Source: an uncultured Enterobacterales bacterium | GTDB lineage: Bacteria; Myxococcota_A; UBA796; UBA2385 | Length of the DNA: 64,000 nt | Direction of reading: 5' to 3' | Assembly: GCA_964599085.1 (NCBI GenBank) | Contig: CAZRFD010000026.1 | Span: 1,982 to 65,981 of the forward strand | Part shown: one piece after another, positions 5,734-28,403 of the stretch | Position numbering within the stretch: the stretch's first letter is position 1 | Layout of the letters: each line of letters starts with the position of its first letter | The notes under the pieces: generated by a model | Told to the model about the DNA's origin: nothing | What the model saw: only the letters and a program-made list of their open reading frames with translations | The model's database searches: none | Translations under genes and position numbers: made by a program

Positions 5734-7182
5734 TCAGCGCGACAGCCAGCCCTTGCGGTGCAGGCGCTTGACCTCTGCGCGGGCGCGGGCGAGGTCGTCT
5801 TCGAGCCGGGCGCGCATGTCGTCGGAGGCGGCCAGCTCGGCGTTCTTCTTCTCTACATCCGCTTGCAGCGAGGCGATCCGCTCGTTGGCCGTCTCCAGGT
5901 CGTCGGCGGCCTGGGCGGAGCGGGCGCCGAGCACCGTGATGGCCTGCCGCTTGAAGGAGGCGACCTCGTCGACGGCGCGGGACAGCCGCTCGACCGTCCC
6001 GAGCAGCTGCTGGAGCTGGCCCGTGAGCCGGGCGACCTCCTGGCGCTTGGCGACGGCTTCGGCTTCGGCCCGGGCAGCGCGGTCGTCGGCCGCGATGGCG
6101 CGGGCGTCGGCGGCGGCGGCCCGGGCGGCGAGGTCGGCGGCGCGGCTCAGCGGACCGGGGGGCGCCCGGTGCGATGCGGGCGCGTCGAGCCAGTCGACGA
6201 GGGAGGCGGCACAGGCGGCCGCGCTGCGCTGGCGGGCCAGGGCCCGGGCGGCCTTGGCACACGCGCGGAGCGCGCTCCCCCCTGCCGCCACGTCGTCGAG
6301 GACAGCGTCCAGGACGTCTTCGATGTCTCCGGCCCAGGCGGCGCCGGCCAGGGCTTCGTCCACGGCGGAGTCCGCGGCACAGAGCACGGGCAGCCCGGCG
6401 GCGAGGTAGTCGGCGTGGCGGAAGCCCAGGGCGAGCTGGCGTTCGGGGTTGTCGGCCATCCAGTCCAGGGCGGCCGTGGCCCCGGCCCAGGCCTTCTGCA
6501 GCGCGTCCCAGGGCAGGGTCCCGGCGCGCTCCAGGCGGGGGTGGTCGGGGAGGCTGTCGGCATCGCCGTACCAGCGCACGCTGCCGATGCCGCGGCGGTC
6601 GAGGTGGGCCAGCACGCGGTCGAGGCCCTCCCGCGGATCGGCCCAGGGCCAGGCCTGTCCCCCGCCGACGAAGACCGGGGAGGCGGGCCAGCGATGCCGC
6701 AGCGGCTCGCGGCTGGCGATGGGGACCAGCAGGGTCGGGTCGCGGCGCACGTCGACCCCGGCCAAGGCGAGCACACCGAGCCAGGACCAGCGCTGCCGCG
6801 GGCTGCTCACCAGGAAGACGTCGCCGGCGGCGAGCGCGCGCAGCACCGCCGGCGCCGCTTCCGCGAGGGCGCCCTGGAAGGGAGCCTCCAGGAGCCGGGG
6901 CGCGTACAGGTCGACGGCGAGGGGCTTGCCCAGCACGGCGAGCGCGGGCGCGTCCTCGAGCTGCACGCAGACGACGGCGTCCGGGCCCCGCGCCGTCGCC
7001 TTGCGCACGAGGTCGGCGGGCGAGGCGAAGCCGCCGGGCTCGTCCTGATCGCGGGCCAGGTAGCACACGTCGAGGCCGGCCTGCTGCAGCCCCCGGCCGA
7101 GCTGCCAGGCGCGGATCCCGCCGCCGCTCGCCGGGCGGCCGGTGGCGGGGAGGCTTCCGTGGTGGACGACGAGGATGCGCAT
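5734..7182 (-). CDS. Glycosyltransferase (GT-B fold, GT1/GT4-like) with ~150-aa C-terminal coiled-coil extension
   Basis: N-terminal MRILVVHHGSLPATG...GGG and central GT-B sugar-donor region. C-terminus (ARAEAEAVAKRQEVARLTGQLQQLL...LQADVEKKNAELAAS...RARAEVKRLHRKGW) is heptad-like, Ala/Glu/Arg-rich coiled coil. Chosen over overlapping Arg-rich ORFs in other frames. Confidence 0.75.
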   Translation of the reverse strand: MRILVVHHGSLPATGRPASGGGIRAWQLGRGLQQAGLDVCYLARDQDEPGGFASPADLVRKATARGPDAVVCVQLEDAPALAVLGKPLAVDLYAPRLLEAPFQGALAEAAPAVLRALAAGDVFLVSSPRQRWSWLGVLALAGVDVRRDPTLLVPIASREPLRHRWPASPVFVGGGQAWPWADPREGLDRVLAHLDRRGIGSVRWYGDADSLPDHPRLERAGTLPWDALQKAWAGATAALDWMADNPERQLALGFRHADYLAAGLPVLCAADSAVDEALAGAAWAGDIEDVLDAVLDDVAAGGSALRACAKAARALARQRSAAACAASLVDWLDAPASHRAPPGPLSRAADLAARAAAADARAIAADDRAARAEAEAVAKRQEVARLTGQLQQLLGTVERLSRAVDEVASFKRQAITVLGARSAQAADDLETANERIASLQADVEKKNAELAASDDMRARLEDDLARARAEVKRLHRKGWLSR

Positions 7183-7245
7183 CGACGAGGAGCGTACCAG
7201 CCGCGCCCCACCTCAACCGCGCCCAGCGCGGTAGCTTGAGACCCG

Positions 7246-9393
7246 ATGCCCTCTGCCCGCCGAAGCCGCCGTGACCTGCTGCGCGACTGCGCGATGTACC
7301 TGTCGCGCCGCCTGGGCCGCGGCCTGGCGCCTCCCGACCGGGTCAGCGTCAACCTCACCCTGCGCTGCAACCTGCACTGCACGATGTGCACGACCTGCTA
7401 CGACAGCCCGGAGCTGTCCACCGACGAGGTCAAGGGCATCATCGACCAGACGGCGGCCTGGGGGGTGGAGGTCTTCAACCCGCTGGGCGGCGAGCCCTTC
7501 ATGCGCGCCGACATCGAGGAGATCCTCGCCTACGCCGTGGCCCGGGGCTTCTACGTCACCGTGACCACCAACGGCACCTTGATCACGGAGAAGCGGGCGC
7601 GGGCCATCGCCGCGATCCCGGCGGACCGCCTGCACGTCAACATCAGCCTCGACGGCGACGAGGCCGCCAACGACGCCATCCGCGGGGCGGGCATGTGGAG
7701 GCGGGCGATCACCGGCTACCAGCGGATCCGCGCTGCCGACGCCGCCGCGGGCAACAGCCGCCGCAAGATCCTCGCCAACAGCATCCTGCACGCCGGCGTG
7801 CTCGACCGCTTCGAGGCCATCCTCGACCAGCAGGCCGCGCTCGGCTTCGACGGCGTGCAGATCCTCAACCTGTTCCGCGCCGGTCCGGACGTGCCCGCCG
7901 AGAGCCGCGCGCTGTGGTTCTCCGGCGATCAGCTCGACACGCTCGACGCGCTGGCCGGGCGCCTCGCCCAACGCGCCGAGACCCAGGGGCCCGCCGGCTA
8001 CCGGATCCAGAACGACCCGGGCGCGCTCCGCAAGATCCCGCGGTACTACCGCGACGAGCTGGGACCGCTGGAGGCGCCCTGCTGGGCTGGCTTCAAGGAG
8101 CTGTACATCAACGCCGACGGCGCCGCGATCATGTGCGACGGCCAGCTCGACTTCCTCAAAGGCAGCTTCGGCAGCGTCCGTGAGCAGACCCTGCGCCAGC
8201 TCTGGAGCAGCCCGCTGCTCGCAGAGCGGCGCGCCGTGGTGAAGGCCTGCACGACACCGTGCATCCAGGACTGCTACCTGCGGCAGCAGAGCGACTCGGG
8301 GCGGGAGCTGGTGGCCGACGCCGGACGCCTCGCCGCCGACCAGCTCCGGGCCCGGGTCGCGCGCCTGCGCCGCCGGGTGGAGCACGTGGACGGGGCGGTC
8401 CTGCGGCTGGAGCTGAGCGACGTGACCGACGCGCCCGCGCCGGGCTGCACGACCCCCATGTCCCGCTGGGAGCGCCTGGTGGAGGGGCTGCCGCAGGCCC
8501 CCTCGGCCGAGACCTGGGGTGCGCTGCGCGACCGTGGCTACCTCGACTTCGGGCGGGGCTTCATGGGCTTCGAGATCGTGCGCGCCGTCTGTGCGGACCT
8601 CGTGACGGCGCGCCTGCGCTTCGACACGCTGGCGCTGCGGTGGCGCGGCGAGCCGCTGCTGCACGGCGAGATCGAGCCGATCCTCTCCCACCTGCTCGAC
8701 CACGTGGCGAGGGGCGAGGTGGCGGGTCGGCTGCGCCTGGAGACGAGCGGCCGCTTCTACACCGACCCGCTGCTGGCCCTGGCCGGGCGCCCCGTGCCGC
8801 AGGACATCGTCGTCGACCTGGACCGCTGGGCCGGCTTCGATGGCGGCGGGGCATGGACGCCTGCCGCCGGGCTGCCCCCGGCGCTGCCCCGGCTCGAAGC
8901 CCTGGCCGGGCCCCACACCCGCATCCTGCTGACGGTCCGAGCGACCGCCGACACCGACGCAGCCGCGCTCCGAGCGCTGCGTCCACGCTACGCTCTCGCT
9001 GCGGGCCGCTACCCGGACACGGGCGACCGGGTCATCTTCGCCCGTCGGACCGACCACGATCACTTCCTGGCCAACCGCGACGCCAGGGCCGCGCTCGCTG
9101 CGGTGGCCGACGCCTGGGGAGTCCCCGTAGACCTCGGTGACGAGGACGGCCCGCGGCGCTGCGTTGCGCCTCGGCGCACCCCCACCGTGAGCTGGGACGC
9201 CAAGATCACGCTGTGTCCCCGAGACGTGCAGCTCCAGCAGCGGGTGGGCGAGGTGACCAGTGGCCGCCTCTCCGAGGTGTGGCGGGGCCCCGACCTGGAG
9301 GCCGCCCGGCGGCAGTGTGACGGCAGCGGTGTCCCCGACCGCGCGCTGTGTCGGGACTGCCCGTGGCCGTGGAGTCCGAACCTGCCGGGCTAG
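7246..9393 (+). CDS. Radical SAM / SPASM-domain protein, tandemly duplicated (second radical-SAM-like half has lost the CxxxCxxC cluster motif)
   Basis: First half: CNLHCTMCTTC (Cx3Cx2C), GGEPF, TVTTNGTLI, then SPASM-like cysteines (CWAGF...IMCDG...ACTTPCIQDCY). Second half (from about aa 400): FEIVRAVCADLV...GEPLLHGE...LETSGRF but no Cx3Cx2C, followed by a second SPASM-like tail (RRCVAP...AKITLCPRD...CDGSG...CRDCPW). Possible alternative start at M17 (MYLSRRLG). Confidence 0.8.
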   Translation: MPSARRSRRDLLRDCAMYLSRRLGRGLAPPDRVSVNLTLRCNLHCTMCTTCYDSPELSTDEVKGIIDQTAAWGVEVFNPLGGEPFMRADIEEILAYAVARGFYVTVTTNGTLITEKRARAIAAIPADRLHVNISLDGDEAANDAIRGAGMWRRAITGYQRIRAADAAAGNSRRKILANSILHAGVLDRFEAILDQQAALGFDGVQILNLFRAGPDVPAESRALWFSGDQLDTLDALAGRLAQRAETQGPAGYRIQNDPGALRKIPRYYRDELGPLEAPCWAGFKELYINADGAAIMCDGQLDFLKGSFGSVREQTLRQLWSSPLLAERRAVVKACTTPCIQDCYLRQQSDSGRELVADAGRLAADQLRARVARLRRRVEHVDGAVLRLELSDVTDAPAPGCTTPMSRWERLVEGLPQAPSAETWGALRDRGYLDFGRGFMGFEIVRAVCADLVTARLRFDTLALRWRGEPLLHGEIEPILSHLLDHVARGEVAGRLRLETSGRFYTDPLLALAGRPVPQDIVVDLDRWAGFDGGGAWTPAAGLPPALPRLEALAGPHTRILLTVRATADTDAAALRALRPRYALAAGRYPDTGDRVIFARRTDHDHFLANRDARAALAAVADAWGVPVDLGDEDGPRRCVAPRRTPTVSWDAKITLCPRDVQLQQRVGEVTSGRLSEVWRGPDLEAARRQCDGSGVPDRALCRDCPWPWSPNLPG

Positions 9394-9493
9394 CGTTGTT
9401 CGGCACCGAACAGTGTAAGGCGTTGTGGAGTGCTGCGGGCTTCCAGCCGAACACGGGTAGGCTATCGTCGCCGAACGCTGTTCGGCAGCCGCG
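9394..9493. terminator. Convergent intergenic region with two near-identical palindromes (TGTTCGGCACCGAACA and GCCGAACGCTGTTCGGC) plus a half-site; probable bidirectional terminator or protein-binding site
   Basis: Seen directly between the converging stops of the radical-SAM gene (9393) and the NACHT gene (9494). GTTCGG/CCGAAC arms recur three times within about 90 nt. Coordinates approximate. Confidence 0.35.
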
Positions 9494-11437
9494 TCAACCC
9501 CTGGTGTGCGGGGGGCGCAGCAGGCCGTCCTCGGGCGTGTAGCAGACGCCGTGTTCGTCGACGACGCGCCACTGCAGCCCATGCGGGATCCGGTCGACGT
9601 CGGTGTCGACCAGGAAGACCGTGCGGGCGATCGGTGCCGGTGCCGGCTGCGGACTGCCCAGCAGTGGGGCGAGGGTGCCGACGTCGGGGCGCTGGCAGAG
9701 GTAGATGGCGGCGATGTCGGGGGAGGGGACCGACAGTGCTGCGCCGGGGGGGAGCTCCGCGACCCGCGTGGCGTCGGCGACGACCCAGTCCGGCCAGGCG
9801 TCGCCGTCGTCGCCACCGCGGAGGCGCCAGACATCGCTGTACACCTCGGCGAGGCGGAGGTGTTCGAGGCGGCGGGCCGCCCGCTCGGCGAACAGCTCGT
9901 CGCCGAGGCGGGCGGCGAGCGCGGGCTGTTCGTCGCCCAGCACGTCGAGGAGGAGGGCGACGGTGGTGCCGCCGGCCGACCGGAAGATCCACCGGCGCAG
10001 CTCGCCGGCTGCGCGGTCGGCGCGGGCCGGGTCCGCCCAGGCCGCCCGCAGGCGATCGAGGAAGGCCGAGGCGGCGAGCCAGTCCTGCAGCAGCAGGTGG
10101 GCGAAGGCCACGCGGTCGTGGTCGCGGGGGACCAGCAGGCCCGAGCGGCGCACGGTCCCGTCGAGCAGGGCCCGGGCGACACCGTCGGGGTCGGTGGGAT
10201 GCCCCGCCGCGGTCACCAGCCTGTCGGCGTGGCGCGAGATGGTCTGCCGCGCGCGCTCGCGGGACCAGGTGGTGCCCACCTGGAGCTGGTCGACCGGGTC
10301 GTCGTCGGTGCCGCTGGACGAGTCCAGGGCCGTGCCGTCGAGGTCCGCGATGTCGGCGCGGCTGGCCCCCCACACCCGACGGCGGTTCATGGTCAGCGCC
10401 AGCTCCTGCAGGAGCCGGCGGCGGGCGGAGAGCGACAGTGCCGCGACGAGGGCCGGTCCGGTCTCGACGAGCACGGCGTCGACGACGCGGCCGAGGAGCT
10501 CGCTGCGACGCCGGGGCAGCAGGCCGAAGCGTCGATGGACCAGCGCCAGCAGCGTGAGAAGCAGCGGGTTGCCGGCGACGAAGGCCATGCCGGGGTCGGC
10601 GTCGATGGCCGACAGCAGCGCCGAGGAGAGGCGGTCGGCGTCATCGGGCGTGCGCCAGCGGTGCCAGCGCAGCGTCAGGGCGGCCCGGGCCTGGGGCGAC
10701 AGCGGCGTGATGCGGGCGGTGACGAGGTCGGTCGCCGTGGCGCCCTCGGCCAGGGGGACCTCGGCGGTGCCGCGCGGACGACTGGTGAGCAGGAAGCTGG
10801 ACCGTGGGTAGCGGGCCATGCCGTCGAGCAAGGCGGCGCGGAGTCCGCGGCGGAGCGTGGTGTCGGCCACCTCGTCCCAGCCATCGACCAGCATCATGAG
10901 CTGGCCGGCAGCACCCATGGCGTCGATCCGCTCCCGCAGCCCCGCGGGCCAGTCGGGGGCAGCGCTGAGCAGGCCGACCAGGGCGTCCCAGGTGTCGGTG
11001 TCGTCGGTGATCGGCAGATCGCGGAGGATGATCGGCAGCGGGATCAGGACGCCGATGCGCGCGTGCAGGGCGTTGCGGGCACGCTCGGCCAGCGTCCAGG
11101 ACAGCCACTGCACGAAGGTGGACTTGCCGGTGCCGGCGGTGCCCAGCAGCAGCACCCGCTTCCGGGCGGCCACCAGCAGCTCAAGCTGGTCGGTGCGGCC
11201 GCGGCGGGTGCCTCCATCGCCACCGGGCTGCTCCCAGTCCACGGAGGGCGGCACGTAGAGCTGGTCGATGGGGAAGTCTGCCCGCTCGTCGGCCCGGTCC
11301 AGGGCCAGCGTGTTGACGGTGCGGAAGCGCCGCCGCAGGGCGAGCAACCACGCGAGCACGGGCTCGTCGTTGTCCCGGTCGAGGAAGCGGTCGTACTCGG
11401 CCGGGGCGACGGGAGGCAGGGGCGGCCAGGTCGTCAC
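9494..11437 (-). CDS. NACHT-family STAND NTPase (no recognisable effector or repeat-sensor domain)
   Basis: GTG start overlaps the KAP gene stop (GTGA). Walker A VLLLGTAGTGKST, Walker B LMMLVDGWDEV, sensor-1 FLLTSRP, NACHT winged-helix motif VAFAHLLLQDWLAA. About 95 aa precede the P-loop and about 200 aa of unassigned C-terminus follow. ORF-track N-terminal extension (9494..12010) rejected because it overlaps the upstream KAP gene. Confidence 0.8.
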   Translation of the reverse strand: MTTWPPLPPVAPAEYDRFLDRDNDEPVLAWLLALRRRFRTVNTLALDRADERADFPIDQLYVPPSVDWEQPGGDGGTRRGRTDQLELLVAARKRVLLLGTAGTGKSTFVQWLSWTLAERARNALHARIGVLIPLPIILRDLPITDDTDTWDALVGLLSAAPDWPAGLRERIDAMGAAGQLMMLVDGWDEVADTTLRRGLRAALLDGMARYPRSSFLLTSRPRGTAEVPLAEGATATDLVTARITPLSPQARAALTLRWHRWRTPDDADRLSSALLSAIDADPGMAFVAGNPLLLTLLALVHRRFGLLPRRRSELLGRVVDAVLVETGPALVAALSLSARRRLLQELALTMNRRRVWGASRADIADLDGTALDSSSGTDDDPVDQLQVGTTWSRERARQTISRHADRLVTAAGHPTDPDGVARALLDGTVRRSGLLVPRDHDRVAFAHLLLQDWLAASAFLDRLRAAWADPARADRAAGELRRWIFRSAGGTTVALLLDVLGDEQPALAARLGDELFAERAARRLEHLRLAEVYSDVWRLRGGDDGDAWPDWVVADATRVAELPPGAALSVPSPDIAAIYLCQRPDVGTLAPLLGSPQPAPAPIARTVFLVDTDVDRIPHGLQWRVVDEHGVCYTPEDGLLRPPHTRG

Positions 11438-12813
11438 CGGGGCCGCTCCTCTCCGAGGTCCGCGGCTTCGACGGGGGCGGTCGGTGCGGGCGCTGGCGCG
11501 GCGCTGCGGCGAGTCGGCTCCCGACCCTGGAGCAGGCGGTACAGCTCCTGCTGGCGCGGGGTGGGGTGTCGCCGGACGAGGCGCGCGGCCCGAAACACCG
11601 ACACGTCCCCGGGATCGTGGAAGGTGGTGCCTTCTTCCGCCGTGAGCAGCGCGGTCCCGGTCGCGGGGTCCGCGGGTGCGATCCGGTCGGGCACGGTCAG
11701 CCCGGCGAAGACCGCGTGCCGGCGCTTCAGCACGGGCCCCTCTTCCGAGAACGCGTGGATCTCGGCCCAGAAGGCGGGGTTGGCTTCCAGCACCCGGTAG
11801 ATGGCGGGGTGGAAGGTCTGCAGCGCCTGGATGGTGCTGGCCAGCGAGATGTCGGGCGCTGCCCCGCCGAAGGTCCGGCGGTAGCCGTCGACGCGGCCGT
11901 GCAGCTCGACCATGAAGCGCTTGAGCTTGCGGGGGTTGGGCGGGAGGAAGTCCAGCGCGTCCTGGAGTTGGGCGATCTGCGCAGCGGCGCCGTCGCCGTC
12001 CGGCCAGCACGCCGACAGCAGGGGGCGCAGGTCGGGGGCCAGCGGCAGCGAGCGGACCGACTGGAAGAGCTTGTCGCTGTACTCGGCGGCGTCCAGCTCG
12101 GCCCGGGCCAGGCTGGCGGCGTCCGCGGCCGGGAAGAGCTTGCGCTGCAGGGCGCGGACGACGGCGCGCCGGTCGGCGGCGATCACGAAGACGCAGTTGT
12201 CGGCGTTGAGGTAGAGCTTGAGCCCCTCCAGCAGGCGGACGACGGCGTCGTCCCCGCAGCGGTCCAGGTCGTCGATCAGCACCACCAGCTTGCTGTGGTC
12301 GTCGGTCAGGGCGGCGATGGCCTGCTGGAAGGCGCTGCGGAAGGCTTCGCTGGTGAGCGGCACCGCGAAGCTGGACTGCTCGATGCGCTCGCCCTCGGCC
12401 CGGGCCGTCGCCACGACACCGTCGCGCTTGCTGCCGAGGCCTGAGAGCGTGTTGGCGAGGTCTTCGAGGAGGCGCAGGCCGGTGTAGGCCGTCACCGTGC
12501 TGAGCTTGCCGGCTTCATCCCAGGCCCGCCGCGACAGCGCGAGCTGGTCGCGGATGGAGTGGAGGAGCGCGACGGCCGGCTGGGCCTCGAACTGGTGGCG
12601 CCAGGCTTCGAAGAAGACGACCGTGCACTTGCGCGAGGTGTGGGGCAGCCGTTCGCCGAGCATGCGCAGGAAGCTGGTCTTGCCCGCACCCCAGTCGCCG
12701 TGGATGCCGAGCACGTAGGGGGGCGTGCAGGTGGCGATGAGATCGGCGATCTCGTCGGCGAGGGGGCCGCGGCCGAGGCGGTCTTCTGTCGTCGGTTCGT
12801 CGTTGAGCAGCAC
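11434..12813 (-). CDS. KAP-family P-loop NTPase (PifA / Kidins220 family)
   Basis: GTG start (VLLNDEP...) with GGAG about 9 nt upstream, 23 nt after the upstream gene stop. Walker A LGIHGDWGAGKTSFLRML. KAP-diagnostic Walker B VVLIDDLDRC. The Arg/Pro-rich 233-aa N-terminal extension of ORF 11434..13512 overlaps the upstream gene and is rejected. Confidence 0.8.
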   Translation of the reverse strand: MLLNDEPTTEDRLGRGPLADEIADLIATCTPPYVLGIHGDWGAGKTSFLRMLGERLPHTSRKCTVVFFEAWRHQFEAQPAVALLHSIRDQLALSRRAWDEAGKLSTVTAYTGLRLLEDLANTLSGLGSKRDGVVATARAEGERIEQSSFAVPLTSEAFRSAFQQAIAALTDDHSKLVVLIDDLDRCGDDAVVRLLEGLKLYLNADNCVFVIAADRRAVVRALQRKLFPAADAASLARAELDAAEYSDKLFQSVRSLPLAPDLRPLLSACWPDGDGAAAQIAQLQDALDFLPPNPRKLKRFMVELHGRVDGYRRTFGGAAPDISLASTIQALQTFHPAIYRVLEANPAFWAEIHAFSEEGPVLKRRHAVFAGLTVPDRIAPADPATGTALLTAEEGTTFHDPGDVSVFRAARLVRRHPTPRQQELYRLLQGREPTRRSAAPAPAPTAPVEAADLGEERPR

Positions 12814-12836
12814 GGCAGGGACTCCAGGCGGGCAAC

Positions 12837-14192
12837 TTACCGCAGCAGCGGCGAGTGGCGCCGCAGGGCGTCGATCTCGCGCAGCAAGGCCTTGTGCCGT
12901 GGGAAGCGGCGGCGCATCGCCATCAGCGGGGCTTCGGCCTGGGGATCGTCGGCGGCGACACCGGCTTCGACGAGGGCGACGGTGAGCGCGCCGATGCGGG
13001 TGTAGGCGTCGCGCGCGCGGGCAGCGATCACGGCGCCGGCGAGCTCGATCAGCTCGTTGGCGGCGGAGATGCGCCAGGCGACGGCGTCGGTCAGCCAGGT
13101 GGGGTGCTGGGCGATCACCCGGTCCATGAGCTGCGACCAGCCGGGCGGGACGGGGTCCGGTGGGCGGGGTCGCCAGCGGCCGTCGTCGTCGGTGGCCCGC
13201 CAGATGCGCGAGACCAGCAGCGCTTCGTCGAGGTCGGCGCGCTGGGTCCCGACCCGCAGCAGGAAGGGGATCACCTGGGTGGCGGGGTGCTGGGTATCGG
13301 TCCACCAGGACCGGCGCTCGGCGGCCTGCAGGCGGGCCAGGGGCAGCTCGGCGTCGCCGCAGAGCAGCTCGATGCGGACCTGCAGGTCGGGGGCGATGGG
13401 GCGCTCGTCGGCGTAGGCGGCCTCCAGCTCCTCGGCGAACAAGCCCCCGGCGTGGGTGCCCGCGGCATCCCAGACCATGCAGAGGCCGGCGGTGCACAGC
13501 CGGGTCCGCCACACCTCGCGCCAGGCGCGGTGGGCGGCGTCGACGCGACCCAGGGCGGCGGCGGCCGTGCCCTCGCGCAGGCGGAGCTGCAGGCGGTGTC
13601 GGGGCCAGTACAGGCTGCGGGCGCCGCTGCTGGCGGCGCGGAGCAGCTCTTCGTGGCGCCCCTCCTCCTGCAGGGCGTCGAGCCAGGCCAGCCAGACGTC
13701 GATCTCGTCCGACTGCCGGGCCAGGCTGGCCAGCCCGTCCGCTCCCAGGTCCAGGCGGAGGGCTTCCCGGAGCAGCCGGCCGCGGTCGGACTCGTGGTGC
13801 CGCCAGCGCCCGCCCCAGTCGCCGAGCGCCCGGGTCCAGCCGGGCAGGGTCGCGGTCAGATCCGGCGGCGGTGCGGGCACGAGCCGGATGACATCGTGCA
13901 GCGACAGCGTGGGGCAGAGGTCCAGCACCTCGAGGAAGGCGCCCTCGATGGCTCGTACGCGCTGGCGCCGCGGGTGATCCTCCCAGGCGGCACGCACGAG
14001 GGCTGCGCTGCAGCGCTTGATGTCGTCTTCGTGGTGGAGCAGCAGGCCGGGCTCGGCGCCGCGCAGGCCGGCGAGGATCGCCGTGGAGATCGACCCGACC
14101 CGTGGCCAGTGCCGCACGCCGATGGCGGACTCCAGCGCGGCAAGGCGTTCGCGGAGGGCCTGCTCCCAGGCCTGGCGGGAGGGGTCCGACAT
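12837..14192 (-). CDS. Hypothetical all-helical protein (Leu/Ala/Arg-rich, TPR/HEAT-like by composition), first gene of the KAP-NACHT operon
   Basis: ATG (MSDPSRQAWEQALRERLAALES...) lies 8 nt after the dapB stop. 451 aa with no recognisable motif. The ORF-track start at 14330 would overlap dapB by 130 nt. Confidence 0.6.
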   Translation of the reverse strand: MSDPSRQAWEQALRERLAALESAIGVRHWPRVGSISTAILAGLRGAEPGLLLHHEDDIKRCSAALVRAAWEDHPRRQRVRAIEGAFLEVLDLCPTLSLHDVIRLVPAPPPDLTATLPGWTRALGDWGGRWRHHESDRGRLLREALRLDLGADGLASLARQSDEIDVWLAWLDALQEEGRHEELLRAASSGARSLYWPRHRLQLRLREGTAAAALGRVDAAHRAWREVWRTRLCTAGLCMVWDAAGTHAGGLFAEELEAAYADERPIAPDLQVRIELLCGDAELPLARLQAAERRSWWTDTQHPATQVIPFLLRVGTQRADLDEALLVSRIWRATDDDGRWRPRPPDPVPPGWSQLMDRVIAQHPTWLTDAVAWRISAANELIELAGAVIAARARDAYTRIGALTVALVEAGVAADDPQAEAPLMAMRRRFPRHKALLREIDALRRHSPLLR

Positions 14193-18148: not shown

Positions 18149-19684
18149 TCAGCCGCCCGGCGGGTCCAGCTCGAAGTGCCCGCCAAGCCGCGGCACGGGC
18201 ACGACCCCGTCGCTCGCTGCGGGGACCCGCCCCGGGAGGTCGGCCTGCCACTGGATCGTGAGCACCGCGGGCTCGCCGCCCGGCCCGAAGACGAGGTCGC
18301 GCTCGATGCCGACGCGACGCAGGTAGGGCGAGAGGTGCTGGTCCCAGGAGGGCGTGGTCTGCAGCGCGCAGGGGATCTCCGGGGCGCTCTGGACTCGCAC
18401 GCGGCCCGGGGGAGCGGCGGCGATGGCTGCGGCGACCGCGCTCATGCCGAGGTCGTCGTCGACGGGGGCCCGCAGCCACTGCTGGGGACAGCCGGGGACC
18501 ACGGCCTGCAAGGGGGCCGGGAGCGTGGGCGAGGGGACCAGCGACCGCCAGGACAGCCAGGCGGCGCCGACGGCCGTCAGACCGGCCAGCGGCCACCGGG
18601 TCCGCCGGTCTTCGACCAGGGCGAGGCCGGCGAGCGCCGCGACGGCCGGTGCCAGGGGAGCGGCGAGGCGGGGGTACTTCTTGGGGACGAGGGCGAGCAG
18701 CAGCATGCCGCCCAGGAGCCAGGCGAGGGCGACGCGTGCGAGGTGGCGGCGGGGGCTGCCGCGGCCCAGGGCCCGCACCCCGGGCAGCGCTGCGAGGCAC
18801 AGCGCCGGGCCGGCGATGATCACGGCCATGGCAGCGGGGTACCAGAGCAGGTGCAGCAGTGGCGAAGCGCCGACGGCGCTGCCGGCGCTCCGCCCTCCAT
18901 AGGCGAGCTGTTCCTGGAGGTGGAGCAGGTACCAGGGGCCGGCGATTGCGCCGGCGACCGCGAAGGCGAGGAGGGCCGGGCGCAGGCTGCGTCGGCCAGC
19001 CTGCACCAGCGCCACGGCGACCGGCGGCCCGGCCAGCAACACGAAGGTCTGCTTGACGAGGAGGCCGCAGCCAAGCGCGGCGCCAAGAGCCAGCGCGCGG
19101 CCCGGAGACGGGCGCTCGGCAGCCCGTACCGCGGTCAGGACGGTGACGGCGACGGCGGCGACGAGCATGCCCTCGGGCATGAAGTGCCGGCTCAGGCCCA
19201 CCGGCAGCGGCAGCAGCGTGGTCAGGCCGGCAGCCAGCAGGCCAGCCCGGCGATCGTGCCGTCCGACGAGCAGGCCGACTGCGCCCGCGGCCACCAGCAC
19301 CCACAGCAGCCCGAGCCCGCGGACGGCGGCAGTGCCTGGCTCGCCGGTCCCGGTGGCCCACCACCAGGCGCCGGTCAGCGCGGCGTACAGCGAGGGGTAG
19401 TCGCCCATGTCGCCCACCCACAGCCGGGAGAGGAAGCCCCCCCAGTCGTGCCCGAGCAGGTCCTCCCGGAACAGCTCGGCGGCGCCGACGTGCCCCTCCT
19501 CGTCCCCGTCCCGGAGGAGGTGGTCGGAGGCGATCCACCACAGGTTGCCGACAGTCCAGGCCACGCCCCACAAGCCCGCGATCAGGCTTGTGGAAAACCT
19601 GTGGGTTCCTGTGGAAGAGTTCGCGGGCGGGGTCACGGTCGGCGCGGGGGGAGGGGTACGGTTGTGCTGTCGACAGCGAGGCAA
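18149..19684 (-). CDS. GT-C family glycosyltransferase (PMT/ArnT-like, GT39/GT83-type)
   Basis: Polytopic; first-loop acidic motif RDGDEEGH after TM1 (LIAGLWGVAWTVGNLWWIA), analogous to the DE motif of PMT/ArnT enzymes. Start ATG 1 nt after the upstream gene stop. Confidence 0.7.
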   Translation of the reverse strand: MPRCRQHNRTPPPAPTVTPPANSSTGTHRFSTSLIAGLWGVAWTVGNLWWIASDHLLRDGDEEGHVGAAELFREDLLGHDWGGFLSRLWVGDMGDYPSLYAALTGAWWWATGTGEPGTAAVRGLGLLWVLVAAGAVGLLVGRHDRRAGLLAAGLTTLLPLPVGLSRHFMPEGMLVAAVAVTVLTAVRAAERPSPGRALALGAALGCGLLVKQTFVLLAGPPVAVALVQAGRRSLRPALLAFAVAGAIAGPWYLLHLQEQLAYGGRSAGSAVGASPLLHLLWYPAAMAVIIAGPALCLAALPGVRALGRGSPRRHLARVALAWLLGGMLLLALVPKKYPRLAAPLAPAVAALAGLALVEDRRTRWPLAGLTAVGAAWLSWRSLVPSPTLPAPLQAVVPGCPQQWLRAPVDDDLGMSAVAAAIAAAPPGRVRVQSAPEIPCALQTTPSWDQHLSPYLRRVGIERDLVFGPGGEPAVLTIQWQADLPGRVPAASDGVVPVPRLGGHFELDPPGG

Positions 19685-19685
19685 T

Positions 19686-21524
19686 TCAGAAGGTCTGGCC
19701 GATCCGCAGAGTTACCCACAGGCCGGCCAGGATCAGACCGGGGAGCAGACTGCGGAGCGCGGCTGCCCGGGGAACGTCCGAGGCGGCGATGGACATGGGG
19801 CCGCAGAGTGCGACGAGCGGCAGGAAGTAGTGGGTAGGGTGGTGGTCGATGGTGCACAGCAGGGTGCTGTAGGCCAGGGCGCCGAGGACGAGGAAGCGGG
19901 TGCCGCGGCGGGCCGGCGTCGACCTGCCCACGCTGGCGAGCAGGGCCAGGAGCCAGGCGCCGCCGGCGTAGCGCAGCCACACCAGGTAGAAGTCGGGGAT
20001 CCGCGGTAGGAGGGAGGTGCCGCTGTAGTCGGCGTGCCAGTGCTCGGGGAAGGTCTCGAACCACAGGATGAACAGCAGATCCTGCATGCCGCCGAGGGCG
20101 ACCACGACGGCCGCGAACACCGCTCCGGCCGCCGCCAGCGCCCACAAGCGGACGAGCCCCCGCCAGGGCGGGCCGTGCCCCGAGACGCGCCAGGCGAGCG
20201 CCAGCAGCGTGGCCAGCACGACCCCCGGCCAGCGCAGCAGGCCGGCGGCGATGCCGAGCAGGGCGAAGCCCATGTGGCGCTCCTCCGCCAGGGCGAGGGC
20301 GACGGCGAGCACCGCTGCGGCGTACAGGCTGTCGGGGAAGTTCGTGCTGCCGGGCTCGAACATCAGGAGGGCGTGGACGGCGACCAGGGCTGGTGGGACC
20401 AGCCAGGCCAGCGGCGGTGCCCGGGGAGCCAGCACCGAGCCGAGGCGGATCCCCGTCAGGCCGACCAGGGTGATGACGCCGAGGAAGAGGAGGTTGTTGG
20501 CGGGGAGATCGGGCTTGCCGAACAGGAGCGTCGTGGCGAGCAGCGGGCTCCAGCCCGGCGGCTGGTTGAGCGTGAACCAGCGCCAGTCGAGGACCTCGCG
20601 GGCCCAGTCCAGGTTCTCGACCTGGTTGAGGATCTGCCAGTAGTGGGTGTAGCGCAGCTCACCGTCGGCGTGGGCCGACCAGACGGCCTCGGTCCCTGGC
20701 AGCAGGTACAGCCGCGCGCCCTCGGCCTGGACCGCAAGCTCCTCGCCCGTCTCCATGTCGACATCGACGGCGAGGGCGGCGGTGCCGGCGTCGAGGTAGC
20801 GTCGCACCGGCGCCTCCTCGCCCTGCTCCATGACGCTGGCCTGTACCGTGGTGTGCTGATCGCCCACGGTGAGCTGGCTGCCCAGCGGCCCTCGGACGGC
20901 GAGGATGATGCGGCCGTGGGCGGGTCCGGCGGCGCGCAGGTGCACCTCGGTCGGGCCGTCGGGGAGGTCGAGGCGGACCGCCCCTGACTCGGGCCAGCCG
21001 AGCGGGTGGACGGCCGCCTGCCAGTCCAGTGCGGGCTCGACGGGCAGGATCTCGTGGCCCTCGTCGGCGGCCCCTTCCAGCCACCAGTAGCCGTCGAGGG
21101 GGCGCAGCAGGTCACCCTGGCGCCACCAGGCCGACAGCAGGACCGCGGCGACGACCGCCGCGCCACCCAGCCACTCACGCCGCGGGGTGGTCGGGCGGGG
21201 AAGGCCGCGGGCCAGCGTGGTGCCCGCCAGCCACCACGAGAGCGTCAGGACCAGCAGACCCCAGGCCGCCAGGTCACCGCGCAGGCCGACCGTGCGCACC
21301 AGCGCGACGTCCAGCCAGGTCGCCGCCGCTGACAGCCAGCAGGCGTCGATGACCACCGCGAGCCCCGTCGTGGACTCCCCTCCGTTGCGGGCCCGCAGCC
21401 AGCGGGCCCAGCCCGAACCCGGGGCCCACATCAGGCCGGGTACGGCGAGCGCTCCGCTCAGCCACCACGGGCCGGAGAGGCCCAGGGCCAGGGCGGTCGC
21501 GATGATGGTGGCCAGCGCGATCAC
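19686..21524 (-). CDS. Polytopic membrane protein with central soluble domain, possible second GT-C-like enzyme
   Basis: GTG start overlaps the cupin stop (GTGA). About 4 N-terminal TMs, then WWLEGAADEGHEILPVEP and a ~200-aa soluble segment, then about 8 further TMs. The ORF-track N-terminal 107 aa (Arg/Pro-rich) overlaps the cupin gene and is rejected. Confidence 0.65.
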   Translation of the reverse strand: MIALATIIATALALGLSGPWWLSGALAVPGLMWAPGSGWARWLRARNGGESTTGLAVVIDACWLSAAATWLDVALVRTVGLRGDLAAWGLLVLTLSWWLAGTTLARGLPRPTTPRREWLGGAAVVAAVLLSAWWRQGDLLRPLDGYWWLEGAADEGHEILPVEPALDWQAAVHPLGWPESGAVRLDLPDGPTEVHLRAAGPAHGRIILAVRGPLGSQLTVGDQHTTVQASVMEQGEEAPVRRYLDAGTAALAVDVDMETGEELAVQAEGARLYLLPGTEAVWSAHADGELRYTHYWQILNQVENLDWAREVLDWRWFTLNQPPGWSPLLATTLLFGKPDLPANNLLFLGVITLVGLTGIRLGSVLAPRAPPLAWLVPPALVAVHALLMFEPGSTNFPDSLYAAAVLAVALALAEERHMGFALLGIAAGLLRWPGVVLATLLALAWRVSGHGPPWRGLVRLWALAAAGAVFAAVVVALGGMQDLLFILWFETFPEHWHADYSGTSLLPRIPDFYLVWLRYAGGAWLLALLASVGRSTPARRGTRFLVLGALAYSTLLCTIDHHPTHYFLPLVALCGPMSIAASDVPRAAALRSLLPGLILAGLWVTLRIGQTF

Positions 21525-21913
21525 GGCACGCCAGCGGCGGGCGGTCCGACCGGCCAGGGCTCGGTGCCCTCGTGGGGGTGGGCGCGGTCGGCGATCGCCA
21601 GGACCAGCGCGGGTCCGTCCAGGGCGAAGAGGGCGTGGGCCTGGCCGGGCTCGACCCGGACGCGCCGGTCGGCGAGCGCGACCTCGGCCCGGGCCCCGGT
21701 CGCGGGGTCCTCGACGACCAGCAGCGCGCGTCCCTGCAGCAGGAGGAACCACTCGCCGCTGTGTCGGTGCAGGTGGTGTCCGCGGGGGTGCCCGGGGCGC
21801 AGCTCGACAGCGTAGACCTCTCCCTCGACCGCCGCCGGCCAGCACTTGATCAGGGCACCGCGCGGGCCTTCGTGACGCTGCACGGCCTCGCTGCGCAGGA
21901 TCAGCGGGCGCAC
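21521..21913 (-). CDS. Cupin-domain protein (sugar epimerase/isomerase-like small barrel)
   Basis: Cupin motifs LRPGHPRGHHLHRHSGEWFLLLQG and VRVEPGQAHAL. Start tentatively the GTG overlapping the epimerase stop by 13 nt; an alternative GTG 27 nt downstream is possible. Confidence 0.6.
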   Translation of the reverse strand: MRPLILRSEAVQRHEGPRGALIKCWPAAVEGEVYAVELRPGHPRGHHLHRHSGEWFLLLQGRALLVVEDPATGARAEVALADRRVRVEPGQAHALFALDGPALVLAIADRAHPHEGTEPWPVGPPAAGVP

Positions 21914-22845
21914 AGGGCCTCCTGTTCCCGGCGGTACCAGGCCAGGGTGTCGAGCAGGGCGGTGTCGAGCTCTTCGTGGGGGAGGGGGCCGATGAGCGCG
22001 TCGGTGGCGCGGTGGTCTCCCCAGAAGGCGTCGACCTCTCCCGGACGGCGCGGCAGCACGCCCGGCTGGTGCAGCGCCGGATCGGCGCCGGCGAGGCGGA
22101 AGATGCGCTGGACCATGTCGTGGACGGAGAGCCGCGGACCGCCGCCGAGGTTCAGCAGGCGGCCGACGCTGTCGGGGTGGGCGGCGACGGCGACGATGCC
22201 GTGGGCGATGGCGTCGACGTGGTTCCACTCGCGGACCTGGCGGCCGTCGGTGGTGGGCAGCGCCTGGCGGGCGAGGGCGGCGCGGCAGGCCGCGGGGATG
22301 AGCCCCCGGGCTTCGCCGGGGCCGAAGGCGCGGAAGGGCCGCACGACCGTGGCGCGCAGGCCGTGGCTGCGGTGCAGACCGAGCACCCAGGTGGTCGCTG
22401 CGGCCTTGAGCGTCGAGTACGGCGAGGTCGGGGAGGCTGGCGCGTCGGGCGAGAACGGCACCGGACCGCCGGCCGACTCTTCGCAGGTGCCGACCTGGAC
22501 GAAGCGGAGATCGAGGTCCAGGGCCGCGCGCGACAGCGCCACGCTGGTGTCCAGGATGCCGGGGCGGAGCGTGTCGTACAGCTGTGGATCGCGCCGGAGA
22601 TCGACGGGGCTGGCGAGGTGCAGGACGACGTCGGGGCGCACGGCGTCGAGGAGGGGGCGGGCGTCGACTGGGAAGCGGGCCGGCCAGGCGTGGACGCCGG
22701 GGGGGCAGGGGCGGCGGTGCTTGGTGCCGTGCACGTCAGCGCCCGCCGCCAGCAGGAGCTGGCAGACGGCCCCACCGAGGAAGCCCGACGCACCCGTGAC
22801 GAGCACGCGACGTTGTCGCCAGGCTTGGGGGCCGGTCCACTGCAC
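21901..22845 (-). CDS. NAD-dependent epimerase/dehydratase (extended SDR)
   Basis: VLVTGASGFLG Rossmann motif; YSTLK catalytic YxxxK. Confidence 0.8.
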   Translation of the reverse strand: MQWTGPQAWRQRRVLVTGASGFLGGAVCQLLLAAGADVHGTKHRRPCPPGVHAWPARFPVDARPLLDAVRPDVVLHLASPVDLRRDPQLYDTLRPGILDTSVALSRAALDLDLRFVQVGTCEESAGGPVPFSPDAPASPTSPYSTLKAAATTWVLGLHRSHGLRATVVRPFRAFGPGEARGLIPAACRAALARQALPTTDGRQVREWNHVDAIAHGIVAVAAHPDSVGRLLNLGGGPRLSVHDMVQRIFRLAGADPALHQPGVLPRRPGEVDAFWGDHRATDALIGPLPHEELDTALLDTLAWYRREQEALCAR

Positions 22846-22863
22846 GGCGGTACTCTACAGCCG

Positions 22864-23598
22864 ATGGCCGGTCCCCTCCGCCCGATCCTGGTGTTGCTGC
22901 TGTGTGCCGGCTGCTCGCTGCACGCCGCGACCGAGGTACACAAGGACAGCGCGCTGGACGACAGCGGCGAGCCGGCGGGCGACACGGGCGCGACGGTGGA
23001 TGGCGGCGACGGGGGCTTGGCCGGAGATGGTGCGGCGAGCGATGGGGCGGCCGAGGACGGCGGGGCGCTGGATCCCGACGACGGTGACGGCGACGGCTGG
23101 ACCGCGGCCGAGGGCGACTGCGACGACGCCGACGCGGCCGTCCACCCCGAGCAGGCCGACGAGTGCGACGGCACCGACAGCGACTGCGACGGCGTCGTGG
23201 ACGAAGACGCACGCGACCACGACCCTACAGAACCCAACGACGATGTCCCCTGGTCGCTGGGCGACCTCTCTTCCGACCCGCAGCTCCAGACCCTGGCCAG
23301 CCTGACGAACGACGACGACGTCGATCGCTTCGACTTCACCTTCGACGACGGCGGCCTCTCCCTGTTCACGCTGACCGTGGCGGTGAGCAACGTGCCGGCG
23401 GGCAGCAGCTACCGGGTCCGCCTCGAGCACCTCGACCGGGGCGAGGTCGTCTACGACGACTCCGGCAGCGGCACGCTGGCGGTGGAGGTGTCGGACACCC
23501 TGCTGCAGGACGACGGCGGCACCTGGGAGCTGACCGTGTCCAGCGAGCACGGCGCCGACTGCGGGGTCGACTACCTGGTGAGCGCGCGGCTGGACTGA
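22864..23598 (+). CDS. Lipoprotein with MopE-like putative metal-binding Cys/Asp motifs
   Basis: MAGPLRPILVLLLCAGCSLH (lipobox LCAGC). DPDDGDGDGWTAAEGDCDDADAAVHPEQADECDGTDSDCDGVVDED resembles the myxobacterial putative metal-binding motif (MopE-type). Confidence 0.7.
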   Translation: MAGPLRPILVLLLCAGCSLHAATEVHKDSALDDSGEPAGDTGATVDGGDGGLAGDGAASDGAAEDGGALDPDDGDGDGWTAAEGDCDDADAAVHPEQADECDGTDSDCDGVVDEDARDHDPTEPNDDVPWSLGDLSSDPQLQTLASLTNDDDVDRFDFTFDDGGLSLFTLTVAVSNVPAGSSYRVRLEHLDRGEVVYDDSGSGTLAVEVSDTLLQDDGGTWELTVSSEHGADCGVDYLVSARLD

Positions 23599-23654
23599 CG
23601 GCGCGCCACGCCCGTGGGTGCCAGAGGGACGCAGCACTCGGCGGAGGCCGGAGG

Positions 23655-24842
23655 TCAGAAGCGCGCCTGGTGTTCGAGCAGCAGGCGCGCTCGTCGGAGG
23701 CTGGCCCGGCTGCGCAGCCAGCGCAGGAGCTGGTCAGTGGCGGCGTCGGTCGTGCCCAGGTCGGCCTGCACGAGGCCGCGGAGGGCTTCGTCGCCGGTCC
23801 CGCGGGTGGCCCAGGCGCGGAGGAGCACGCGGGCCGCCTGGGCGTCCAGGCCGCGCCTCGCCGTCCAGACCACGGGCAGCGCGTCGGGGCTGGCGCTGGC
23901 GCTGCTGCCCCCGCGCAGGACCGCTCCGTCGCTGTGCACGAGGACGAGGACGCCGTCGGGGGCGGCCCGCACGCAGGTGTGTACCCTGGGTGGTGGGAGG
24001 GTCCGATCCAGTGCGCGCGTGGCGGCCGTCAGCCGTCGGGTGCGGCCACGTCGGCCGGCGAGGCGGGCAGCGATGCGCAGGCGGTGACGTTGCTCCAGGA
24101 GCGTGCTGGCCAGCGTCTCGCGCAGCAGTCGGAGGCCGACGGCGGCCGAGGGGGGCGGGTCGGTGGTCCAGGCCAAGGCCAGCGCGCCGACGGGGTGGGC
24201 GCCGGTCGGGTCGAGGGCGGCGACGGCGGTGGCCAGCCCCGACAGGTCCTGGGCGACGGTGCGCCGCCGATCGAAGGGGTCCAACCACAGCAGCCGTGCC
24301 CCACTGGGACCCTCGTGGAGCAGCGCGCCGATGGGCCCGCCGTGGCGCAGGTCCGCGTCATGCAGGCGGCGCAGTCCGTCGAGGCCGGCCCCCAGCAGGC
24401 GGGCCAGGACGCGGCCGTCCGCGGCGTCCTCCACCGGGAGGCGGTCGAGGAGAGGAGCCCCGGGTGCGACCACCCGGATGTGCGGCCAGTCGCCACCCGT
24501 CCGTAGCTCGAGCGCGTGCAGGTGACGCACGCGGCTGGGGGCCAGCTCGAAGCGCCGGCGCATCACGGGGTCGTCGCGCCACCGGGCCCGCAGGCAGCGC
24601 AGCACGACGCGCAGACCGTCGTCGATCCGCCAGGCCTCCCAGGTCGTGGCCAGGGGGTCCACCGCCAGCAGACGGGCGCGCCGGACCCCGTCGATCATCG
24701 GAGGGAGCGCTTCGGTCGCCAGCTCCAGCTCGCGCAGCCACAGGGTCGCGTCGTCGTCGCCCCGATCCGCGGCCGCGCGGCGCTCGGCGGCCAGCCAGGG
24801 GCCGGTCGGCGGCAGGAAGAGGTCGGGGTGGGTTGCGCTCAC
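23655..24842 (-). CDS. Hypothetical protein (possible degenerate kinase-like fold)
   Basis: 395 aa, Leu/Ala/Arg-rich. LHDADLRHGGPIG is reminiscent of a kinase catalytic loop but not diagnostic. Follows murJ by 25 nt on the same strand. Competing Arg-rich plus-strand ORFs rejected. Confidence 0.45.
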   Translation of the reverse strand: MSATHPDLFLPPTGPWLAAERRAAADRGDDDATLWLRELELATEALPPMIDGVRRARLLAVDPLATTWEAWRIDDGLRVVLRCLRARWRDDPVMRRRFELAPSRVRHLHALELRTGGDWPHIRVVAPGAPLLDRLPVEDAADGRVLARLLGAGLDGLRRLHDADLRHGGPIGALLHEGPSGARLLWLDPFDRRRTVAQDLSGLATAVAALDPTGAHPVGALALAWTTDPPPSAAVGLRLLRETLASTLLEQRHRLRIAARLAGRRGRTRRLTAATRALDRTLPPPRVHTCVRAAPDGVLVLVHSDGAVLRGGSSASASPDALPVVWTARRGLDAQAARVLLRAWATRGTGDEALRGLVQADLGTTDAATDQLLRWLRSRASLRRARLLLEHQARF

Positions 24843-24867
24843 GGCAGAGGACTAGCGCACTGAGCCC

Positions 24868-26424: not shown

Positions 26425-26488
26425 GCCGCGTCCCGTTGGCGCGTGGCAGCGGTCCGGAGGAGTCGCGCGGCCGCCCGCCGCCGCGCGC

Positions 26489-27277: not shown

Positions 27278-27310
27278 GCGCGGGCACCTATCACCGCCGG
27301 CTGGCCGCGG

Positions 27311-28156: not shown

Positions 28157-28292
28157 GCGCTTCCTCCCGAGCGGTCCGCACCTGATGCCGCGATGGTCGC
28201 CCGGCTTCGTGCCGAGGAGCACATCGACGCGCGCTCGCGGGCCCGCTCGCCCCCGTCCCCTGTTCCGCCCCGTCCCGGGGACCGCACCCGGA

Positions 28293-28372
28293 ACGGGAAA
28301 AGGCCGGGCCTCCCGCGAGGCCAAGTGTGGGGGGGGGACGCACTCGGCCGTCAGCGGGAGGTCCCGGCCATA
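28293..28372 (-). terminator. Intrinsic terminator-like structure: 15-bp GC stem (GGCCGGGACCTCCCGC / GCGGGAGGCCCGGCC), ~38-nt loop containing a C9 run, followed by UUUUCC
   Basis: Inverted repeat seen directly, followed on the minus strand by a T tract. About 150-220 nt downstream of the 28517 stop of the lipoprotein gene. Coordinates approximate. Confidence 0.4.
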
Positions 28373-28400
28373 CGACCTGGTAGCCAGGTCCGTCGGAACA
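28293..28400 (-). ncRNA. Candidate ~100-nt small RNA (promoter to terminator) or 3'-UTR/leader element
   Basis: Inferred from the promoter-like hexamers about 30 nt upstream and the terminator-like hairpin plus U tract at its 3' end. No coding potential. Confidence 0.2.
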
Positions 28401-28403
28401 CTC

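Follow-up and report, generated by a model that had tools for sequence, protein, structure and literature searches.

An intact radical SAM/SPASM-type half joined to a radical SAM/twitch half without its radical-generating cluster in a protein of uncultured Myxococcota

Radical S-adenosylmethionine (rSAM) enzymes with SPASM or twitch extensions are encoded by about 165,000 genes and make up a very large share of the rSAM superfamily, and many of the characterised SPASM enzymes are maturases of peptides that are made on the ribosome and modified after translation (RiPPs) (PMC9012708). The roles of the extra domains and clusters in SPASM/twitch enzymes are still debated. Two rSAM domains can also be joined in one polypeptide, as in FbiC (FO synthase, a CofG-CofH fusion), where both are active, a 5'-deoxyadenosyl radical being formed in each (PMC11917521). 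Here, a gene for a 715-amino-acid (aa) protein with two rSAM-type halves was analysed in a stretch of 64,000 nucleotides (nt) from an uncultured bacterium (contig CAZRFD010000026.1, positions 1,982 to 65,981), which is referred to as the window. The open reading frame (ORF) occupies positions 7246-9393 of the forward (+) strand, with an ATG start and a TAG stop. Its N-terminal half (N-half) is a complete rSAM protein with a SPASM-type tail, and its C-terminal half (C-half) is a homologous, confidently folded rSAM/twitch module without the radical-generating cluster. This architecture of a live N-half and a pseudo-rSAM C-half is highly probable.

Like the SPASM/twitch RiPP maturases SkfB, SuiB, CteB, PqqE and MftC, the N-half consists of an rSAM core followed by a Cys-rich iron-sulfur (Fe-S) extension. 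The window protein differs from these enzymes in having no N-terminal RiPP recognition element (RRE) and no adjacent precursor gene, in its five-Cys tail and extra Cys (C51), and in its second rSAM-fold module. The C-half shares four twitch Cys with BtrN, a twitch rSAM dehydrogenase (PDB 4M7T/4M7S), at 18% identity, but it is without the CX3CX2C motif, so it is no dehydrogenase itself, and it sits behind another complete rSAM enzyme. FbiC is likewise a single polypeptide with two different rSAM domains; however, the second domain of the window protein is cluster-less, and there is no specific sequence relationship between the two proteins. The nearest relatives of the C-half are standalone rSAM/twitch proteins of about 370 aa (P0149, P0154, P0158, P0162), which share with it LELT/S, FWxGEPLLHPxF, xTNG, C..WK.P..WDG..T.C..D and C..C.xP.SxN. 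Unlike the C-half, this standalone subfamily keeps CX3CX2C and the mid-barrel SAM-binding motifs, and it is without an insertion of about 30 aa and the GRGFMG motif.

Going by its model name, TIGR04347 ('pseudo-SAM/SPASM protein', Haloarchaea) presumably sets a precedent for rSAM/SPASM-like proteins whose SAM-cluster motif is not functional. The window protein scored 82.4 bits against this model (cut-off 525), on residues 33-168 of the intact half and not on the dead half. Its score against TIGR04321 ('spiro-SPASM') was 49 bits (cut-off 250), and this match also lay on the intact N-half. Both precedents are single-module proteins from other phyla. A literature search on tandem, pseudo or degenerate rSAM domains returned nothing relevant, and no published description of a live-plus-dead rSAM fusion with a graded series such as the one below was found in it.

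The 715-aa ORF had been noticed in an earlier examination of the letters of the window without database searches (the sequence-only reading), and all the motifs quoted there were recovered in the translation. That its first half is a complete rSAM core was confirmed by Pfam, with Radical_SAM (PF04055) matching residues 35-164 (7348-7737, +) at E 1.4e-17 and 64.8 bits against a cut-off of 29.5. The N-half carries CNLHCTMCTTC at residues 41-51, GGEPF at 81-85 (GGE at 81-83), TNGTL at 108-112 (TNGT at 108-111) and SLDG at 134-137. In an alignment of 35 family members (A1), which is the source of all statements on invariant columns, G81, G82, E83, T107, N109, T111, S134, D136 and G137 were invariant. 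Translation and alignment placed the motif for ligation of the SAM-binding [4Fe-4S] cluster, C41-X3-C45-X2-C48, together with C51, at 7366-7398 (+). The extra C51 (7396-7398), directly after the SAM motif, is also invariant, and of 200 family members that were 520 aa or longer, 185 had the extended CX3CX2CX2C form.

Pfam SPASM (PF13186) matched the protein in two stretches, at 61.2 bits against a cut-off of 21.5, in agreement with the SPASM assignment of the sequence-only reading. The best stretch, residues 279-343 (8080-8274, +), together with the invariant columns defines the N-half extension. The reading had counted seven Cys in this tail; five were found, all invariant, at residues 279, 297, 335, 339 and 343. 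Compared with the seven-Cys SPASM reference motif CX9-15GX4C-gap-CX2CX5CX3C-gap-C, which binds two auxiliary clusters (PMC6231123), C279-X12-G-X4-C297 matches the first element, and the remainder is C335-X3-C339-X3-C343. The strict motif is absent from both halves, the N-half having five Cys and the C-half four conserved Cys. With just five Cys in the N-half tail, C51 is a possible ligand of an auxiliary cluster. The complete rSAM unit with its SPASM-type tail spans residues ~30-345.

The C-half is a pseudo-rSAM partial barrel at residues ~379-630 (8380-9135, +) followed by a twitch-type Fe-S domain (9160-9360, +). Compared directly by plain BLASTP, the halves showed a marginal match (E 0.002) over the GEP...TxG region, and profile-profile comparison of N- and C-halves with hhalign aligned them end to end over 269 columns (95.5% probability, E 1.5e-8). 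A profile built from 22 C-halves (A2) found BtrN in the PDB at E 1.3e-7, with C639, C657, C702 and C705 aligned to the four Cys in the twitch region of BtrN; C691 is an additional, non-conserved Cys of this tail. A BtrN-type twitch domain is a shortened SPASM domain for a single auxiliary cluster, its four Cys lying on either side of the beta-hairpin and behind alpha-2'. Pfam SPASM matched all 22 C-halves (28.6 bits for the C-half of the window protein alone), Radical_SAM matched three of them weakly, and no NCBIfam model matched the C-half alone. An AlphaFold model of the C-half had a predicted local distance difference test score (pLDDT) of 89.9 and a predicted template modelling score (pTM) of 0.90. 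The full-length AlphaFold (AF2) model of all 715 residues had a pLDDT of 87 and a pTM of 0.72, and DSSP assigned a long linker helix joining the halves at residues 352-375 (8299-8370, +). The fold of the C-half is a partial (beta/alpha)6 barrel homologous to rSAM cores, and it aligned to no RRE, methyltransferase or other non-rSAM domain. Together with the missing CX3CX2C, these results bear out the earlier description of the second half as a pseudo-rSAM module.

The position of the lost cluster site had to be revised. It had been placed at AVCADLV, but this segment (residues 447-453) aligns with helix alpha-1. The degenerate loop is LRLELSDVTDAPAPGCTTP at residues 386-404 (8401-8457, +), also given as LRLELSDVTDAPAPGC for residues 386-401, and the alignments pair it with CNLHCTMC in the N-half and with LELTNxCNLxCxHC in intact relatives, with C401 as the sole remaining Cys. 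Since the SAM-cluster triad is missing, the C-half generates no radical. Further along, the alignment revealed a near-invariant, family-specific motif, RDRGYLDFGRGFMG, at residues 428-441 (8527-8568, +), with the consensus RDxGYLDFGRGFMG and with R428, F435, R437, G438, F439 and G441 as invariant columns. It is preceded by the insertion of about 30 aa and is retained in variants with a truncated C-half too. The GGE-type motif of the C-half is WRGEPLLHGE at residues 466-475 (8641-8670, +), which corresponds to FWLGEPLLHP in standalone relatives. GEPLLHGE (468-475), LETSGRF (498-504) and CRDC (702-705) were also located, and the mid-barrel LDAxxxxTY and FQFIV motifs are degraded compared with intact relatives.

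The sequence-only reading had described the protein as tandemly duplicated, and the profile scores contradicted this. When the C-half profile was searched against 1.8 billion representative proteins, the next-ranking matches after the family itself were standalone proteins of ~340-410 aa with an intact CX3CX2C (LELTNxCNLxCxHC), at E values from 1e-30 to 1e-15. These relatives share FWxGEPLLHPxF, xHTNG, C.G.WKSP..WDG..T.CTRD and C..C.IP.S.N with the C-half. Against 64 of them, the C-profile scored 63-136 bits (mean 80) and the N-profile a mean of 32 bits, whereas the C-profile scored about 18 bits against the N-halves of its own family. The C-half thus scores standalone rSAM proteins far above its own N-half, so the two halves stem from different rSAM lineages. 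In-situ tandem duplication was rejected on these scores, and the gene is a fusion of two distinct rSAM/SPASM-twitch lineages. Relative to the parent subfamily of standalone proteins, the C-half gained the ~30-residue insertion after the former cluster loop and RDxGYLDFGRGFMG.

TIGR04317 was the best NCBIfam match of the parent subfamily, with a score of 86 bits where the cut-off is 380. Its genes belong to dense rSAM/SPASM arrays with five to eight such genes each (L089, 3366-10129; L091, 1-8000). About eight consecutive rSAM/SPASM genes, one of them B12-binding, were seen in L091, and several of these were split into a gene for an rSAM protein of ~260 aa and a SPASM gene of ~100 aa. Some clusters hold DegT, epimerase, ABC transporter or GT2 genes; P0162 is in a cluster with DegT and an epimerase, and P0154 lies two genes from a GT2 gene. 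The subfamily also occurs as tandem doubles with both copies intact, that is, double-active (P0143, P0145). In P0207 (L094, 2304-4688; 794 aa), a parent-type rSAM/twitch protein is fused to a GT4 glycosyltransferase (GT), and its gene adjoins Wzy_C and ABC-2 transporter genes.

The family of the window protein comprised more than 300 clusters at 90% identity, with more than 300 full-length homologues of the rSAM/SPASM-type catalytic half plus pseudo-rSAM/twitch half. It was present in 114 of 185,579 species-representative genomes, all of them uncultured metagenome-assembled genomes (MAGs) labelled Myxococcota or 'Deltaproteobacteria'; other labels appear automatic or mistaken. An assembly or fusion artefact was ruled out because the full-length architecture recurs across more than 100 independent MAGs. 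At the window G+C content of 66-76%, the codon-position GC of the ORF (0.74/0.53/0.94) marks it as the coding frame and confirms it as a gene, and an antisense ORF of 989 aa (7213-10182) was rejected as its high-GC shadow.

The state of the second cluster loop was counted in the same 200 members (520 aa or longer). The canonical CX3CX2C was kept in two (P0390, which is the protein of locus L073, and P0391), and 98 had CXCX4C (DVCPCDWEGC). Two Cys were left in three members, one Cys in 17, including the window protein, and none in 77, and the LELSD motif was not located in the remaining three. The CXCX4C loop is a conserved, non-canonical three-Cys loop at the old SAM-cluster site; two of its three Cys are gone from the window protein. 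In a neighbour-joining tree of N-halves, the window subclade (the window protein, L007, L001, L008 and L009) was nested within the CXCX4C clade, so this loss of two Cys is recent; the closest relatives of the window protein have one or two Cys in the loop. The twitch Cys were lost in the subclade L022-L026. In a clade of proteins of 540-573 aa (L067, L069, L074-L082, L085, L086), the C-half was cut to a remnant of ~170-190 aa that retains LELSD, RDxxYLDFGRGF, WRGEPLLHP and SWDG. No member entirely without the C-half was seen among the homologues examined. The cluster site was thus lost repeatedly within the family.

In L073, the mid-barrel motifs VDAFGKDAY and FQFLV are retained besides CX3CX2C, so this protein may still be double-active. 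That both halves of the window protein are active as in FbiC, with the C-half working through a non-canonical cluster site, has this precedent and the CX3CX2C of P0390 and P0391 in its favour, and the CXCX4C loop of 98 of the 200 members could bind a cluster. In the window protein, however, the loop has C401 alone, its closest relatives have one or two Cys there, and the mid-barrel motifs are degraded. A double-active window protein was therefore excluded unless its cluster is assembled from non-Cys ligands, and this possibility is extremely improbable.

The ratio of nonsynonymous to synonymous substitution rates (dN/dS) was compared between the halves. With the 86%-identical L007 as partner, the N-half and the C-half had ratios of 0.138 and 0.137, and the twitch region one of 0.06. 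For pairs further apart, where the synonymous rate is approximate at such third-position GC content, the ratio was 0.38-0.43 for the C-half versus 0.25-0.33 for the N-half. The C-half is under purifying selection. It was also the faster-evolving half in three of four comparisons, and this rate agrees with a C-half that is a decaying, functionless remnant tolerated after fusion, leaving an effectively single-domain rSAM enzyme. The repeated independent losses (77 of 200 loops without Cys, one subclade without twitch Cys, one clade with a C-half of ~170-190 aa) fit such decay as well. However, the dN/dS against the closest relative is low in the C-half and lowest in its twitch region, the fold is predicted confidently (pLDDT ~90), and LELSD, RDxGYLDFGRGFMG, WRGEPLLHPE and SWDGK occur in every variant, truncated ones included. 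At least part of the C-half was also retained in every member seen, and a functionless remnant is quite improbable.

The N-half was compared with curated enzyme families to narrow its possible function. No NCBIfam equivalog came near its cut-off: the mycofactocin maturase MftC was the best partial match (98.2 bits against 265), and the scores of PqqE, NirJ, AhbC/AhbD, the W-cofactor maturase and HpnH were 5-10 fold under their cut-offs. Partial matches of the N-half core to AhbC (85 bits), NirJ (84), AhbD (79.5) and PqqE (77) could point to a cofactor- or tetrapyrrole-type maturase of the NirJ/AhbC/AhbD/PqqE/MftC kind, with its pathway partners elsewhere in the genome. These scores lie far under the curated cut-offs of 265-650 bits, and most of the matches cover the generic rSAM core (residues ~33-170) alone. 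No named cofactor-maturase model reached its cut-off, neither the window nor six related loci with annotation had nir, ahb, pqq or mft genes, and the families in question are single-domain. A cofactor maturase is thus very unlikely.

The sequence-only reading had named peptide (RiPP) or cofactor maturation as typical of SPASM rSAM enzymes, had suggested that the pseudo-rSAM half may bind substrate or a precursor peptide, and had noted that no precursor gene is evident within 100 nt of the ORF. The latter point held: neither the 63-nt flank (7183-7245) nor the 100-nt flank (9394-9493) contained a plausible precursor or other small gene. A RiPP or protein maturase, with an N-half that introduces cross-links or other changes, would then need its peptide or protein substrate encoded elsewhere, and the pseudo-rSAM half might stand in for the RRE as the peptide-binding module. 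Such an enzyme would suit the many peptide maturases among characterised SPASM enzymes and the top fold matches of the protein (SkfB, SuiB, CteB and ChlB), with Foldseek placing the N-half at E 1e-13 to SkfB, SuiB, CteB, BlsE and anSME; the best partial NCBIfam match (98 bits) is also a maturase, that of mycofactocin. However, RRE and PqqD families had no match in the 715-aa protein even at E <= 1, and only about 30 residues precede the core, with a helix at residues 8-23 as their sole element. A scan of the positions next to the rSAM gene in 86 related loci revealed no conserved short ORF. All peptide-maturase equivalog cut-offs were missed widely, and the conserved partner is GT-like. No positive evidence for the RiPP reading was obtained, and we consider it unlikely.

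The rSAM gene is alone on its strand, with a divergent gene 63 nt upstream and a convergent NACHT gene that ends 100 nt downstream. The divergent gene (5734-7182, -) encodes a 482-aa protein with a GT-B-like N-terminal region (~1-340) and a coiled coil in its C-terminal third. The 63-nt intergenic region (7183-7245) is presumed to be a shared promoter region; no sigma-70 consensus was matched in it, a promoter and terminator consensus scan of 7000-9700 was also empty, and Rfam gave no match over 5-12 kb. The 100-nt spacer at 9394-9493 holds the nested palindromes GTTCGGCACCGAAC and GCCGAACGCTGTTCGGC, which form a long hairpin of -46.5 kcal/mol with a z-score of just -1.7 and may be a bidirectional terminator.

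Among 5.8 billion proteins, the family of the 482-aa neighbour had only 120 clusters, none of them from another lineage, and its members often carry PF13524 (Glyco_trans_1_2) or weak GT4/GT1 matches. Of the 86 related loci, 61 had the GT-like gene, mostly in divergent orientation some 1.5 kb upstream (-1.5 kb). When the count was restricted to loci with at least 2.5 kb on both sides, it was present in 37 of 41 in the 'at least 48%' clade. It was displaced by 1.4-4 kb in L004 and L005, and in the distant L088 it lay immediately downstream of the rSAM gene on the same strand; the pairing therefore survives rearrangement. The rSAM gene is linked to the GT-like gene. The downstream neighbour varied among related loci (HSP20, Flp, DapB, unknown genes). 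De novo clustering of neighbouring ORFs was noisy owing to high-GC shadow ORFs, and the only recurrent neighbours to emerge were the GT-like gene, DapB, DHDPS and an unknown of ~455 aa, the last three being frequent as well.

The '~40%' clade had no common neighbour besides occasional GT-like genes and a small cytochrome c. The gene for this small c-type cytochrome lay just 3' of the rSAM fusion gene in L068 (13017-13394) and L087 (12353-12844). In L088, a split pair of an rSAM gene (284 aa) and a SPASM gene (89 aa) was found at 19242-20365, 7 kb from the family gene and similar to the split pairs of multi-rSAM clusters.

We propose a two-module enzyme made from fused rSAM proteins, in which the N-half is the catalyst, the C-half is a non-catalytic partner and the substrate is a non-peptide compound shared with the GT-like neighbour; we consider this somewhat better than an even proposition. 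The N-half (~30-345) would carry out the radical chemistry, and its SPASM-type extension, with five Cys plus C51, would bind at least one auxiliary cluster. The C-half (~379-715), which keeps the barrel fold, the GEPLLHP motif, RDxGYLDFGRGFMG and a fully Cys-ligated, BtrN-like twitch site, may act as a cradle or scaffold that holds the substrate or presents it to the N-half. In proteins that have the twitch cluster, electrons could be relayed through it. A parallel may be seen in the multi-rSAM clusters of the parent subfamily, whose rSAM proteins presumably act together.

As for the substrate, it would probably be a sugar, a glycan or a compound linked to the envelope, handled jointly with the GT-B-like coiled-coil neighbour. 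Such a substrate is favoured over a peptide by the GT-like partner, the rSAM-GT4 fusion P0207, the glycan genes near the parent subfamily, the PMT_2, MurJ and epimerase genes elsewhere in the window and the matches to BlsE (E 2e-9) and AbmM (E 9e-7), two sugar-modifying enzymes among the best PDB sequence matches of the N-half. This assignment of the substrate class is tentative, and we give it less than even odds.

Several observations weigh against the proposed enzyme. The clades without the twitch Cys or without most of the C-half indicate that some lineages can do without any role that this half may have, or can replace it, and that electron relay through its cluster is not what the C-half does in general. 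In structure, the closest matches are RiPP maturases. The neighbour is only weakly assigned as a GT, since the 482-aa protein has no Pfam match of its own and the profile of its family reached a GT-B UDP-glucose glucosyltransferase in the PDB at only E 0.005. The GT-like neighbour was present in five of nine well-flanked loci of the '~40%' clade and was missing from a few well-flanked loci overall. Part of the neighbour conservation also reflects shared ancestry, because the housekeeping genes DapB and DHDPS are syntenic too.

A broader reading describes the family as the graded death of a fused rSAM active site, from double-active proteins (P0390, P0391) through CXCX4C, one-Cys and Cys-less loops to twitch-less and truncated forms. 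The dead half would be kept throughout as an obligatory pseudoenzyme partner and, with the GT-B-like coiled-coil partner, would modify, by radical chemistry, a glycan or some component of the envelope in uncultured Myxococcota. Taken as a whole, this reading is speculative and rather unlikely to hold in full.

As a comparative system, the live-plus-dead fusion offers relatives that span both halves active, an altered three-Cys loop, no Cys, no twitch cluster and a truncated C-half. This series makes it possible to ask what an rSAM barrel and a twitch cluster do without radical making, for instance serving as a scaffold, cradling the substrate or relaying electrons. For annotators it is also a caution against RiPP-maturase labels given by default, as the partner is GT-like and the parent subfamily is found in multi-rSAM clusters, of which some include polysaccharide genes. 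The relevance is mainly for rSAM and pseudoenzyme specialists; with uncultured organisms the practical impact is limited at present, and a wider one would depend on finding the substrate.

Other genes of the window were annotated as well. Between the rSAM gene and DapB, the reverse strand carries a NACHT NTPase (9494-~11300), a KAP-family P-loop NTPase (11434-~12650) and an unknown ORF of 437 aa (12837-~14150). The KAP NTPase matched PADLOC PDC-S20 at 4e-20 and QatA at 7e-18. In L002 and L006, DapB comes directly after the rSAM gene, and the NTPase block at 9494-14150 looks like a lineage-specific insertion of defence-like NTPases. Envelope and glycan genes were located at 18149-32328, namely a PMT_2 GT-C glycosyltransferase (18149-19684), NAD epimerases (21901-22845 and 31180-32328), a MurJ flippase (24868-26424) and a PKD-domain protein (28517-31006); the PMT_2, MurJ and epimerase genes lie 9-25 kb from the rSAM gene. 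A 1489-aa ORF with good coding statistics and no Pfam match occupies 46122-50591 (-). The selenocysteine-specific elongation factor SelB is encoded at 51636-53684 (-), which indicates that the organism makes selenoproteins.

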